From a virus (lineage: Duplodnaviria > Caudoviricetes): a stretch of 64,000 nt of DNA. The stretch's first letter is position 1; each line of letters opens with the position of its first letter. Under the pieces are notes generated by a model, which worked only from the letters and a program-made list of their open reading frames with translations, was not told the DNA's origin and did not search any database. The stretch covers positions 41,903-105,902 of the IMG/VR virus record IMGVR_UViG_3300013121_000004; one strand, given 5' to 3'. Positions 4,853 through 19,455 of the stretch are shown here, piece after piece. Position numbers and translations under genes: made by a program.

Positions 4853-4928
4853 TGGCGCGCCCGACAGGACTCGAACCTGTGACACGTAGCTTAGAAGGCT
4901 ACTGCTCTATCCACTGAGCTACGGGCGC
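4853..4928 (-). tRNA. tRNA-Arg (anticodon UCU)
   Basis: GCGCCCGTAGCTCAGTGGATAGAGCAGTAGCCTTCTAAGCTACGTGTCACAGGTTCGAGTCCTGTCGGGCGCGCCA: 76-nt cloverleaf with TTCGA T-loop and encoded CCA. Confidence 0.95.
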
Positions 4929-6645: not shown

Positions 6646-6721
6646 TGGTGGGCCTGCTGGGATTCGAACCCAGAACCTACAAGTTATGAGCTTGTTGCTC
6701 TAACCGTTGAGCTACAGGCCC
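6646..6721 (-). tRNA. tRNA with CAU anticodon, probably tRNA-Ile2 (lysidine-modified, reads AUA)
   Basis: GGGCCTGTAGCTCAACGGTTAGAGCAACAAGCTCATAACTTGTAGGTTCTGGGTTCGAATCCCAGCAGGCCCACCA. C4-G69/C5-G68 pairs favour Ile2; paired 1-72 and no GGG/CCC anticodon stem argue against initiator Met. Confidence 0.9.
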
Positions 6722-13083: not shown

Positions 13084-13206
13084 TGTAGTATTCCTTACTA
13101 GTCCTCTTGAGTCGTAGAAAGTATCAAACTAGCTCCTGTGTAATCAGATCGCTAGAGTTTACCACTCTCTGTTTGAATGGCGCAATGGCCCGTGTGCGCT
13201 GGATAC

Positions 13207-13662
13207 TCAGCCGTCGTTTCCATCGTCTGTAAACGCAAGCCGCACAATCACCGGGACGAGCTGGCGTCTGTACTCCGCCAAAAGCGGCGCTTCCTTGCGT
13301 TCGTACTCCTCCCAAAGCGGAGCGCGCTGCCGTTCGTACTTCGCCAAAAACGGAGCGCGCTGCCGTTCGTACTCCGCCAAAAGCGGAGCGCGCTGCCGTT
13401 TGTACTCCTCCCAAAGCGGAGCGCGCTGCCGTTCGTACTTCGCCAAAAGCGGAGCGCGCTGCCGTTCGTACTCCTCCCAAAGCGGGGCAGGGAACCGACG
13501 TTCCACCGCCCATTCCACAGCGAGACCAACGCGGAAGGCCCGCTCAATGTTCTCGACCGTGATGGGCATCCCCTCTGGGAATGTTGCCTCGAACAACTCC
13601 CGCTGCTCCGTACACGCACCCCGCAGATGTTTCGCCCGAATCGGGTTCGGTATCCCATTCAT
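13207..13662 (-). CDS. protein with ~7 tandem 11-aa repeats (xxEYERQRAPL)
   Basis: Repeats visible in protein and DNA; GGCGGTGG upstream of ATG. Confidence 0.75.
   Translation of the reverse strand: MNGIPNPIRAKHLRGACTEQRELFEATFPEGMPITVENIERAFRVGLAVEWAVERRFPAPLWEEYERQRAPLLAKYERQRAPLWEEYKRQRAPLLAEYERQRAPFLAKYERQRAPLWEEYERKEAPLLAEYRRQLVPVIVRLAFTDDGNDG
13262..13485. repeat. 33-bp coding tandem repeat, ~7 copies
   Basis: Recurrent aaagcggagcgcgctgccgttcgtac unit. Confidence 0.9.
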
Positions 13663-16002: not shown

Positions 16003-16083
16003 TTAACGCCCTTTCTGTGCGTTTCTGGTGCTATGTACTAGGGTAATACACACACCCTAGTACATAGCGTGGTGCGTTGTGGA

Positions 16084-16917
16084 TTAACCCAGAACGGCGG
16101 CGCGTTCCTGCTGAATCGCCCACTTCCAGCGGTTCATGAGCGCGGACATGTAGACTGGGCGATTCCATTCCCAGTCCTTGAGGATCTCGGGGCGCGCCTT
16201 CGTCTTGCGCCCACCCTGCGGGCCAGTGATGATATCCCGAGGACGAATCCACGAGAAGTCCATGCCGGGATTGTTATCCCGGAGTTCTTGCAGGTACGCC
16301 GCAGCGTCAACGAGCGTACCCTGTTGCCCGTATGTGCTCTCCCGCGCCTGCTGTTCCTGCTGCTCAAGCTGCGCCTTGAGCCTGTCAAGCTCGTCGAGCT
16401 TCTTCAGGATGCCAGCCGAAGGCTGCACTTGCGCCTTCACCTGCTCCATGACAGGCTTCGGAGCCTGCTTCGCAGGAGCCGCGTAGGCGTTTTGCTTCGG
16501 CGCATGCGACCCGTTTACAGGGGCGTGCTTCCCGAGATTCCGCCCTTCATCGCGCGTCATGTTGACGCCTCCGCGCGCTTCGGCCATCAAAGCCGCTTCA
16601 GCAGCCTTCTGTGCTTCGCGTTCGATGGTCGCGCGATTCCGGCTCCCCGGAGGACGCCCGCGCCGTGGCTTCGGCGTAGCCGTGACCCCGAAGTTGTCAT
16701 CGAGGTTCTGGCGAATGGACGTGATGTTCTGAGGAGCCTGCACAGGCGTCCCGAGGACATTCGCAAGGGCGCTTTCAATCGCGCCGTCGATGATGCTCCC
16801 GACGAGCGCATCGATTACCGTGCGCTCAATCATGGGGCCGAGCTTTTCGCTCAGCCGCGCCTGAATCAGTTCTTGAAGCTTGTTCACTATAGTCTCCATG
16901 CGTTTAGAATCCGCCAC
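16084..16917 (-). CDS. putative DNA-binding protein with AT-hook
   Basis: PRRGRPPGSRN AT-hook, coiled coil, basic C-terminal domain. Confidence 0.6.
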   Translation of the reverse strand: MADSKRMETIVNKLQELIQARLSEKLGPMIERTVIDALVGSIIDGAIESALANVLGTPVQAPQNITSIRQNLDDNFGVTATPKPRRGRPPGSRNRATIEREAQKAAEAALMAEARGGVNMTRDEGRNLGKHAPVNGSHAPKQNAYAAPAKQAPKPVMEQVKAQVQPSAGILKKLDELDRLKAQLEQQEQQARESTYGQQGTLVDAAAYLQELRDNNPGMDFSWIRPRDIITGPQGGRKTKARPEILKDWEWNRPVYMSALMNRWKWAIQQERAAVLG

Positions 16918-17009
16918 CCTCTCTTGAGGCCCACCGTATATGCGCCCACATACGATGGAGCACGACTCTTACGCCGTGGCTTAGACTTCCGAGTGCGTGT
17001 GTGTGTGTG

Positions 17010-17531
17010 TTAGGCGAGCTTGCCGTCTGCGAGCTTGGCTGCGAACTGCCCGTTGTTGCCATCCGCGAGCGTGCTACCGCCCACGAGCCGGGACTTCTTC
17101 AGCCCCTTCTCGCTAGCGAGCGCAGTGTACTCGCGCGTGGTAGCCCAGTTGCCGCTTTCCCAGCCGCGCTTATCGCGGTTAGGGAGTTCGCTGAACCCCT
17201 CGCCCGTGGTAGGCGTATGACGCCTCTCCGCCCCTGTCCTGTGGTCGCTGTTCGGATTGCCGAGGTTGTACACCGGGCGCCCCCGAAAGTGCCCGACTAG
17301 GCCGGGCGTTTCATTCACGCCCGACTTGTGCACGTATGGCACGAAGGCAGGGCCACTATCGGCCCCTCGCTGAAGCACGCGCTTGGGTTGCGCAGGCTTC
17401 TCTGCAAAGCCTGCACTCATGGCGTGTGCCGCTGTAGCGGCTCGCAAGGCACGGCGTTCTTCACGCGCCCTATAGGCTGCTTCACGGTCAGCAGTTGCCT
17501 GCTGCATATCGAGCGTGACGACGTAACCCAT
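17010..17531 (-). CDS. hypothetical protein
   Basis: GGAGGG SD; GC3-rich codons. Confidence 0.65.
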   Translation of the reverse strand: MGYVVTLDMQQATADREAAYRAREERRALRAATAAHAMSAGFAEKPAQPKRVLQRGADSGPAFVPYVHKSGVNETPGLVGHFRGRPVYNLGNPNSDHRTGAERRHTPTTGEGFSELPNRDKRGWESGNWATTREYTALASEKGLKKSRLVGGSTLADGNNGQFAAKLADGKLA

Positions 17532-17588
17532 GATGAACCCTCCGAGTGTGTTTGTCGGGGGAGCATAGCTCCCCCTAGGGCGTGTGGA

Positions 17589-17963
17589 CTAGGCGAGCTT
17601 GGCGGGCGTCTTGGCCTTGGCGGGCTGCTTTGCAGCCTGTGCGGGCTTGGCGTAGCGGGCCGCAGCCTCTGCCTTGCGGGCTTCCCGCTTCGCGGGCTCT
17701 TCGACCGACAGGTAGCAGGCCATCCGGCCCTCGCGGTTCACCCATGAGCGTCCGAAGTACACCCGGTATCCCTTCGGGATACCGTGAGCCTTCAGGAAGG
17801 TCGTTGAGAACAGATCCTCCGCAGCGGCTTTGCCGCTGTGTGTCCGCATGTCGTGGGCGATGAACGCCACGACTCGGAACCCTTCGTGGTGGGCTTCCGC
17901 ACGGACACCAGTCTTGCCCTTGGCAAGACCCGTGATTGCGGACTGGATTGCATTGCTGGACAT
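17589..17963 (-). CDS. basic hypothetical protein with Ala/Lys/Pro-rich tail
   Basis: GAGGTG SD; first ORF downstream of the structured RNA. Confidence 0.7.
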   Translation of the reverse strand: MSSNAIQSAITGLAKGKTGVRAEAHHEGFRVVAFIAHDMRTHSGKAAAEDLFSTTFLKAHGIPKGYRVYFGRSWVNREGRMACYLSVEEPAKREARKAEAAARYAKPAQAAKQPAKAKTPAKLA

Positions 17964-17969
17964 GGTACA

Positions 17970-18650
17970 CCTCTAGACAAAGCTCGCGCCTTTTAGGCGC
18001 GGCATAGCGAAAATGTACCTTATTTTGAGCACGCTTCCGCTAGGCCGCGTGTAAAACACGCTTTGCCTTCCCCCGTCCCCCATAAGCGCATATCTTCACT
18101 TGGCGGGCGCAGCTCTCCTACGGACTCATAACCCGGAGGCACGCGGGCCTCAGAGCTGCATAGGGGTTATTACGAACGTTGGCACCACCCAACGCGCTTA
18201 TTGTTAATGTACTCTAGGCACAGCTACCGCCGCGACATAACGTTTCGGCCACGGGTGGCTTGCGCTATGTGGTGAGCATAGCTCGCGCCAACCCTTGACG
18301 TCCCGGCTTCGCCTTACAGGGTCAGCCTTCCGTTCAACGGTAACCTACCTATCGAAGAGTGTTTTGGACATAGCTCACGCCTGCCTGCTAGCTGCCATGC
18401 TAAGGCTCGTTATTGCTATCCCGCGTCCCATAGCTCGCGCTTAAGGTGTCTTGGCTGACCCCTACCGCGTTTGCCCAAAGCTACCGCTCACGTCCGGGAC
18501 AAGTCAACCGAACGTCTAGCTAATGGAATCACTCTTTAAGGTGCGACCGAATCGGTTGAGATTGGATTCGGCAAAGGCCGCAATCGGCCTCGACCCCCAG
18601 AGAATGAACTGTTTCGGCGGTTTTGGCAGGATGTCCTCGGGGGTCTAACC
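17970..18650 (-). ncRNA. candidate large structured non-coding RNA or leader (unassigned family)
   Basis: No credible ORF; at least 10 nested long-range helices whose imperfect positions are G-U on the minus strand; one pseudoknot; six copies of a 13-nt motif. Confidence 0.7.
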
Positions 18651-18689
18651 CACCCGCCGTTTGCATTTCCGCTAGGTTTGCGCAATTAA

Positions 18690-18885
18690 TACATACACTC
18701 GTATATGCTATGTGTGTATGCGTATGTATCCTCAATAACGGTATCATCGTATATGGTATGGTAGGTATATAGTATATCTGTGGTGTATGTATGCTATGTG
18801 TATAGTCTACCTGTGATGTATGTATGGTAATGCGGTAAGGTATACGTGGTAGCATGATAGTGCTCTACTGTCATGCTCTATGAAA
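18690..18885. repeat. G/T-skewed low-complexity tract (GTAT/TATG-rich)
   Basis: Many GTATG/GTATA units, C-poor on the plus strand. Confidence 0.7.
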
Positions 18886-18981
18886 ATGTACTCCGGTACA
18901 GGCTTTGAATGGTAGTCAAACATTTGAGAGATTTTGTGAATTTGTTAGTAGAGGGGTATCTTACTACGTTTGGGCTCAGGT

Positions 18982-19011
18982 AATAAAAACCCCACTAGAG
19001 TATAGTGGGGT
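18982..19011 (-). terminator. intrinsic terminator
   Basis: ACCCCACTA-TACTC-TAGTGGGGT then TTTTATT on the minus strand, downstream of the PRTase gene. Confidence 0.8.
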
Positions 19012-19068: not shown

Positions 19069-19455
19069 TTATGTGTTGCTGGAGAATAAACTGGTGATCC
19101 AGTGTGGGCGGTGGTGTAGTGGGTCTATGTTGCGATCGAAGATTACCAGTCCACTGATAGATGGGAATTGGTTGGTATACTCTTCGTACGCTCGGCGCAT
19201 AGACCCTCCAGTGGTATACACGTCATCGCATATCAGGAGATTGAATCTAGCGTATGAAGTGTATTGCTCCATAGCTTTCGCTAAGCGAAGTCCTCCTCTG
19301 GGGATGCCTACTACGTCGGAGAAGGGTGGGAGTCTTTGGGAGGCGATATACGCCAGTGTTTCGATGTCTCCGTCTGTCAGCGCGTCACAGTCTATTTTCC
19401 ATTCGGACTTTAATCCGCTATTGAGTGTATAGTCACCTATTTGGAATAATGTCAT
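19069..19455 (-). CDS. pyrE: orotate phosphoribosyltransferase-like type I PRTase (short)
   Basis: LNSGLKSEWKID, VVGIPRGG, PRPP-binding LICDDVYTTGGS. Confidence 0.75.
   Translation of the reverse strand: MTLFQIGDYTLNSGLKSEWKIDCDALTDGDIETLAYIASQRLPPFSDVVGIPRGGLRLAKAMEQYTSYARFNLLICDDVYTTGGSMRRAYEEYTNQFPSISGLVIFDRNIDPLHHRPHWITSLFSSNT

Follow-up and report, generated by a model that had tools for sequence, protein, structure and literature searches.

The untranslated leader of a GC-rich gene block in a tailed phage carries eight copies of a short core, GCGNNAGC, all on the sense strand, and the leader at the homologous place in a distant relative carries nine. The motif is strand-biased and clustered, it is conserved across three lineages, and its core is identical to that of the ops and opsX sites. 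We suggest, at a probability of roughly 0.4, that the array is a series of ops-like modules, each combining a hairpin in the non-template strand with a pause, which would load an elongation or anti-termination factor. Loading sites with a GCG..AGC hairpin core are known already in the form of ops and opsX; we know of no description of arrays of eight to nine ops-like sites, and an array of this multiplicity in a phage leader would be the new aspect.

The phage, its GC-rich block and the repeated unit

The window, a stretch of 64,000 nucleotides, is the right-hand 64 kb of a 105.9-kb (105,902-bp) IMG/VR virus record that is 85% complete. The DNA comes from a tailed phage with a GC content of about 44%. 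Its genes encode, among others, a portal and a major head protein as well as an endolysin, and it has two tRNAs, namely a tRNA-Arg(TCT) and a tRNA with a CAT anticodon (Met, or Ile2 if modified), at 4853-4928 and 6646-6721. A 2216-aa protein, considered as a virion RNA polymerase, is the tape measure protein and contains an M23 peptidase domain, and that idea was rejected. No close isolate of the phage was found, isolated phages offered no match to its portal protein, and related DNA is present in wastewater, activated-sludge and soil runs.

Between 13000 and 18700 the GC content is 52-64%, all genes run leftward, and none of them belongs to a known family; the distant relative L021 also has this block, which is likewise GC-rich. 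The leader sits in a 1.1-kb gap that extends from an intrinsic terminator (19011-18989, minus strand) to P0001 (17963-17589), the first gene of the block (Table 1). P0001 matched no Pfam or PHROG family; its structural model is mediocre (pLDDT 65), with no Foldseek match at E <= 0.001 and a best VIA-align Z of 4.2, and the ESM Atlas yielded nothing usable. P0001 and a 173-aa gene are each closed by a 23-nt repeat (17003-17025 and 17582-17604), and each of the two proteins has KLA at its C-terminus. Contigs from DNA runs join 17586 straight to 17010, which identifies the 173-aa gene (17010-17531) as a present-or-absent cassette, and the contig breaks found here in several relatives are thereby explained as an indel of this cassette, not as genome termini. 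Elsewhere in the block, a 277-aa protein has an AT-hook-like stretch, PRRGRPPGSRNR (16600-16660, residues ~83-95), and a Gln/Glu-rich coiled region, which together suggest nucleic-acid binding, and a 129-aa ORF (13124-13513) contains about eight tandem copies of a 33-nt unit (13252-13515) that give rise to an 11-residue protein repeat.

The first-pass annotation described six dispersed copies of a 13-nt motif, and the pattern CAHAGCTMVCGCY matches at exactly those places (17978, 18219, 18277, 18369, 18429 and 18476), all on one strand. By chance 0.09 matches would be expected from dinucleotide shuffles, none of 100 of which reached six, and in the 105,902 bp of the record the pattern has six forward matches, none in reverse and none for the reversed-pattern control. 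On the minus strand all six read R-GC-GNNA-GC-U-DUG, as had been stated. The actual unit is shorter than the 13-mer, consisting of GCGNNAGC and then (U)NUG, and it has more copies than these six: the core occurs eight times in sense (minus strand) and not once in antisense within the 727-nt leader (17964-18690), whereas 2000 dinucleotide shuffles of the leader contained 0.62 on average and never more than 5. The two additional copies are GCGGAAGC-GUG (18030-18041) and GCGCAAGC (18258-18265). Only two cores are found in the remaining 5 kb of the GC-rich block, and 7 of the 11 genome-wide matches to GCGNNAGC(T)NTG, counted on both strands, lie inside the leader, where the copies are irregularly spaced and not helically phased. 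One full 13-mer lies outside the leader, within a phosphoribosyltransferase ORF (19270-19282); 13-mers like AGCGAAAGCUAUG are expected about 0.15 times per genome strand, and this one is kept in the close relatives that carry the gene. As it sits in a coding motif, it may be either a loading site or a chance occurrence within that motif.

The mini-hairpin formerly read into the motif holds as a sequence pattern: GC-GNNA-GC is present in 25 of 25 copies from the three lineages, and the inner loop letters vary. Nineteen of these 25 loops are true GNRA, and the six exceptions all have U at loop position 3; if the loop is left free (GC-NNNN-GC-(U)NUG), seven of eight matches in each lineage have G...A. 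Of the tailed copies in the window and L021, all 15 have A, G or U before the final UG and none has C, so that each tail is a possible start codon (AUG, GUG or UUG); the mini-ORFs that begin at AUG tails were rejected as short and without conservation by eye.

Table 1. Positions of the leader, the copies of the repeated unit and the neighbouring features in the window.
Feature	Position	Strand	Remarks
Outlying full 13-mer AGCGAAAGCUAUG	19270..19282	minus	In phosphoribosyltransferase ORF, ~260 nt before the terminator at 18989..19011
Intrinsic terminator of upstream leftward genes	18989..19011	minus	Counterpart at the same place in the distant relative
Untranslated leader of the leftward GC-rich block	17964..18690	minus	Between intrinsic terminator and first start codon
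Conserved 5' domain	18607..18687	minus	Starts AAUUGCGCAA..UAGCGG.AAUGCAA; 70% identical to the distant relative
Copy A, AGCGGUAGCUUUG	18476..18488	minus	Loop GGUA; GAUA in the 93% relative
Copy B, AGCGCGAGCUAUG	18429..18441	minus	Loop GCGA
Copy C, GGCGUGAGCUAUG	18369..18381	minus	Loop GUGA
Copy D, GGCGCGAGCUAUG	18277..18289	minus	Loop GCGA
Core-only copy, GCGCAAGC	18258..18265	minus	Lacks the UG tail; absent from the first-pass annotation
Copy E, GGCGGUAGCUGUG	18219..18231	minus	First nine letters are those of E. coli ops (GGCGGTAGC); ops12 from PMC5995543
Block GUACAUUAACAAU	18200..18212	minus	Common to all three lineages; weak likeness to rrn boxA plus spacer
Copy F, AGCGGAAGCGUG	18030..18041	minus	Spacing of ops; in 5' arm of the conserved long hairpin; absent from the first-pass annotation
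Long hairpin, ~20 bp	17998..18049	minus	Compensatory changes across three lineages
Terminator-like GC hairpin, weak U tract	17985..18001	minus	Shares bases with the long hairpin and copy G
Copy G, GGCGCGAGCUUUG	17978..17990	minus	26 nt before the start codon; overlaps 3' arm of the terminator-like hairpin
Shine-Dalgarno sequence GAGGUG of P0001	17967..17972	minus	
P0001, first gene of the block	17589..17963	minus	124 aa; Lys/Ala-rich basic tail

Conservation and architecture of the leader

Among 1.8 billion representative proteins P0001 was found in two other lineages only, and no further relatives came up when viral, metagenome and genome collections were scanned with patterns and with proteins. 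Two- and three-copy motif scans of viral contigs returned unrelated tandem repeats, which are probably coding, given periods that are 11, 27 or 33 nt long or divisible by 3 and loops that read GGCA or GUCA. The first-pass annotation had made its proposal dependent on conservation at homologous loci, and the motif is kept in both other lineages. The nearer of these (L011-L020, ~93% nucleotide identity) retains all copies, with three substitutions inside them that fall without exception on the degenerate positions R1 or N5 (GGUA->GAUA, GCGA->GUGA). Its divergence from the window amounts to 12.5% in the P0001 gene, to 5% over the leader as a whole and to only 1 of 319 positions in the stretch 18060-18380, a near-identity that could reflect constraint or recent recombination.

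The more distant lineage (L021/L022), in which the neighbouring protein P0005 is 47% identical, is arranged in the same way, with a terminator, then the leader and then the homologous gene. Its leader aligns with that of the window only over the first 80 nt and the last 90 nt, at 70-72% identity; the central ~560 nt are unalignable, and it is there that most of the nine sense cores of L021 lie (none in antisense; 0.85 expected from shuffles). The loops are GGAA in four copies, and GGGA, GUAA, GAGA, GAUA and GCGA in the others. In 8 of the 9 copies TG stands 1 nt after AGC, as in copy F, and in the six 13-mers of the window 2 nt after it; seven of the L021 copies have AUG, GUG or UUG immediately behind the core. 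The last copy precedes the first AUG by 26-29 nt in either lineage. A module of 31 nt occurs in duplicate in L021, which indicates that copies arise by local duplication and that only the short unit is retained, and the maintenance of many copies despite an unalignable centre argues for selection on the multiplicity of the unit rather than on a fixed position in one fold. The stems are GC/GC in every copy of the three lineages, with no covarying variants, and this invariance provides no covariation evidence in either direction.

The leader has a fast-evolving array at its centre, flanked by conserved domains at its 5' and 3' ends. No ORF was called in this region in the relatives, and Rfam gave no covariance-model match at the gathering threshold and no credible one at E <= 10. 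The 5' domain probably represents the promoter or the place where the transcript begins; a sigma-70-like promoter was not detected at the leader. At the start of the leader (18660-18687) there is a perfect palindrome, TTGCGCAA, with TTGCAT nearby, and this region could be an operator or an unusual promoter. In two RNA runs from a single wastewater study, contigs map to parts of the leader (17806-18061, 18256-18425 and 18132-18522, at a depth of 2-5); being unstranded and possibly DNA-containing, they are too weak as a sign of transcription.

In the 3' domain the long hairpin folds with z = -4.2, -4.5 and -4.7 in the three lineages, and its apex is replaced or expanded from lineage to lineage. 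A 44-nt insertion in L011 (5900-5945 of that contig, at about window position 18021) places small hairpins at the apex and also creates a perfect 10-bp complement to copy F. In the terminator-like hairpin C-G has changed to U-A in the 93% relative. Copies F and G overlap the mutually exclusive helices of these two hairpins just before the Shine-Dalgarno sequence, an arrangement that looks like a switch. Perfect intergenic hairpins without U tracts are also found further downstream, one of 15 bp after the 277-aa gene (16030-16068) and one of 8 bp after the 124-aa gene (17557-17575), and may be processing or stability elements. Part of the motif had been reported to recur in them; GAGCUAUG is indeed present at 17564-17571 and GCUAUG in the 16030-16068 palindrome, but the recurrence is not significant (GAGCTATG has 5 matches as against 3.08 expected), which leaves the proposed link between motif and hairpins without statistical support.

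The region had also been described as a structured element, which holds in part: its 5' and 3' ends are conserved and folded, but its centre cannot be aligned with the distant relative, and the L021 leader, folded as a whole, does no better than shuffles. The window leader folds with z = -3.6 against shuffles (antisense -1.5), the whole L021 leader with z = -1.15. It is very unlikely, in our view, that the leader forms one large folded non-coding RNA of about the size of ROOL or GOLLD, in which the GNRA loops would be tertiary-contact tetraloops and the repeated flanks incidental. Such an RNA would agree with the folding of the window leader, with the conserved and structured domains at both ends and with the near-identity of 18060-18380 to the 93% relative next to a gene that differs by 12.5%, but this near-identity may be due to recent recombination, tetraloops of this kind cap covarying stems whereas the closing pairs and the 3' tail are invariant here, Rfam has no match, and the reading is weakened both by the centre that cannot be aligned with the distant relative and by an L021 leader that folds no better than shuffles.

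Between terminator and leader lies an AT-rich tract with GTAT/ATAC repeats (18690-18980), which is 17 nt shorter in the 93% relative and of which ~35 nt are left in L021; this near-loss indicates that it is not part of the conserved element. Short repeats in the same orientation that adjoin an AT-rich tract are origin-like, and GCGNNAGC mini-hairpins are known from priming sites in phages G4, St-1 and alpha3 and from the vicinity of RSF1010 ssiA (PMC13037366). That the array is a DNA-level signal for replication or packaging, made up of iterons for an initiator or terminase or of priming mini-hairpins, is nevertheless quite unlikely: the distant relative keeps the array with the tract almost gone, terminator and Shine-Dalgarno sequence with start codon frame the array in both lineages, no initiator, primase or terminase gene was recognised among the adjacent genes, whose proteins have no family, the irregular spacing shows no helical phasing, and the nearby contig ends are accounted for by the cassette indel.

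Reading of the array in the DNA strand or in the RNA

In the ops-like reading that we prefer, the leader would be transcribed leftward, and GCGNNAGC in the exposed non-template DNA strand would snap into a stable mini-hairpin of two base pairs, closed by a sheared G-A pair, with the UG 1-2 nt past it acting as the pause point. Each module would thus provide a brief window for an elongation or anti-termination factor to board the polymerase; this factor could be an RfaH/UpxY-type NusG paralog from the host, or a phage-encoded protein with an equivalent action. With eight to nine chances and varied loop letters, the polymerase would almost certainly have taken up the factor by the time it reached the first gene of the block, and the factor would then keep the 700-nt transcript, which is not translated, from terminating too early. 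We infer here that the polymerase pauses, that hairpins form in the transcription bubble, and that a factor is loaded and brings about antitermination. Counting against these steps, the known ops and opsX sites are single in their leaders, a promoter was not found, the 85%-complete phage record yielded no NusG-like gene (nothing matched PF02357 at E <= 1), the G5 and T6 of RfaH sites are mostly lacking, the UG stands one base further on in the window lineage, and upstream pause hairpins are not enriched (those ending 0-4 nt upstream accompany 6 of 8 copies in the window and 6 of 9 in L021, against backgrounds of 0.59 and 0.65).

As the non-template strand and the RNA have the same letters, sequence alone cannot separate a reading in DNA from one in RNA. 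It is possible, if on balance doubtful, that GNRA mini-hairpins in the nascent leader RNA bind a phage or host RNA-binding protein, whether as boxB-like antitermination marks, for autoregulation by the basic P0001 or as a protein sponge, in which case a protein bound at copy G would be in competition with the terminator-like hairpin that closely precedes the first gene. The prevalence of GNRA loops (19 of 25) is consistent with this, r(GCGCAAGC) and r(GCGAAAGC) being classical GNRA hairpins (PMC13037366), and so are the conserved boxA-like block and the switch-like overlap of copies F and G with alternative RNA helices in the conserved 3' domain. Moreover, each lineage has one spacing (GCU-NUG in the window 13-mers, GC-NUG in L021), which suggests a dedicated reader that co-evolves with the array, and the neighbouring P0001 family has diverged to an equal degree. 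However, the stems of 2-3 bp have no consistent extension, the RNA form is marginal (r(GCGAAAGC) melts at 39 C; PMC13037366), the predicted pair probabilities of the mini-hairpin in the leader RNA are ~0 for most copies, the stems do not covary although RNA would accept other pairs, and no recognisable RNA-binding fold emerged for P0001 from a predicted-structure comparison based on its mediocre model. The same short stems, which are always GC/GC and hence in the most stable DNA form, favour the ops-like reading in DNA, and neither the near-zero pairing in RNA nor the burial of copy F in an RNA helix would affect a signal that is read in the DNA.

With regard to the functions that had been offered for the motif, antitermination marks come closest to this evidence, albeit not as lambda boxB, whose hairpin is RNA and has a stem of 5 bp; multivalent protein binding is possible, with the GNRA array as a close rival reading, and neither DNA iterons nor processing sites gained support. 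We also considered a bolder version of loading through the DNA strand, in which the array would serve as a “master key”: its loop-diverse non-template mini-hairpins would capture whichever NusG paralog the cell expresses (e.g., a phase-variable UpxY-like one), or would load a non-NusG phage protein (e.g., of the P0001 family) that reads the shape of the hairpin. We hold this to be unlikely; if true, it would constitute a new form of viral takeover of transcription elongation by means of repeated DNA-strand signals.

If the ops-like mechanism proposed above is true, viruses use the same principle for the boarding of the polymerase, made tunable by the multiplicity of the sites and the diversity of their loops. 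The array may explain how a long untranslated leader in front of a compositionally foreign block escapes premature termination, and the ~560-nt element could serve as a compact natural test bed for the effects of loop, spacing and copy number on pausing and factor loading.

Comparison with known loading and antitermination signals

The phage array resembles lambda N nut sites and the antitermination leaders of rrn operons in its GNRA-type loops, in its location in a phage leader and in a presumed read-through of terminators. The likeness of the block UUAACAAU to boxA is partial, covering 5 of 9 core positions and 6 of 6 compared spacer positions, and with the boxA sequences taken from PMC2724277 it should be regarded as a lead only. 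Lambda boxB has a 5-bp stem and a GNRA-like pentaloop in the RNA and adjoins boxA, with one copy per nut site, whereas the phage copies differ in both stem length and loop size, with stems of 2-3 bp and loops of four bases; no N-like protein was identified. Sponge RNAs such as CsrB and RsmZ likewise carry many short hairpin motifs of the same strand on one non-coding transcript, but theirs have GGA loops and longer stems, while in the phage array GGA is found in some loops only and the stems have 2 bp.

Every copy falls under the 8-mer definition of the mini-hairpin DNA d(GCGNNAGC) of Hirao and colleagues, whose melting temperature of 70-76 C rises above 82 C if a 3' T follows (PMC13037366); this stabilising T is also present in the window lineage, and nearest-neighbour folding misses the stability of such DNA. 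The natural cases, at the G4/St-1 priming sites and in the N4 early promoter hairpins, are single and belong to single-stranded origins or promoters, not to leader arrays.

The opsX sites of Bacteroides capsule operons are leader pause sites that recruit a specialised NusG paralog, UpxY. They encode YGCGNAGCR, with GCG..AGC stems as in the phage and variable loops (PMC11685472), the loop setting the specificity. They differ from the phage array in having a three-base loop, an upstream RNA pause hairpin, multipartite contacts over ~40 bp and one pause site per leader, as opposed to four-base loops, upstream hairpins that are not enriched and many copies. The CPS leaders have one prominent pause each, and both ops and opsX are single sites (PMC11685472).

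The ops12 element of E. coli, GGCGGTAGCGTG, forms a hairpin in the non-template strand with a C3:G8 pair and a G4-A7 loop, RNA polymerase pauses at U11, and RfaH requires G5 and T6 (PMC5995543); all E. coli ops sites encode GCGGTAGC (PMC11685472). The GGTA loop is found in two of the eight window copies (A and E), both with the additional base before TG, and in none of L021, and copy F, AGCGGAAGCGTG, has two mismatches to the enterobacterial ops consensus GGCGGTAGnnTG; the copies thus do not amount to RfaH sites of the E. coli type. RfaH ops sites are single, and their loop letters 5 and 6 (G5, T6) are read by RfaH, whereas the window and L021 leaders hold eight and nine copies in which these letters are free to vary and the window 13-mers have one more base before TG. 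The pair and the loop ends that define the ops hairpin are present as GCG..AGC in all 25 copies of the three lineages. By its position, 1 nt (copy F and most L021 copies) or 2 nt (the 13-mers) after AGC, TG could act as the pause dinucleotide. All copies are in sense orientation, between a terminator and the start of a co-directional block of more than 5 kb. As with ops, the core GCG-NN-AGC, followed by TG and read for ops in the non-template strand, thus occurs in a long 5' leader near the first gene; copy E begins with GGCGGTAGC, and in copy F and the copies of L021 the register matches that of ops exactly, GCG-NN-AGC-N-TG.
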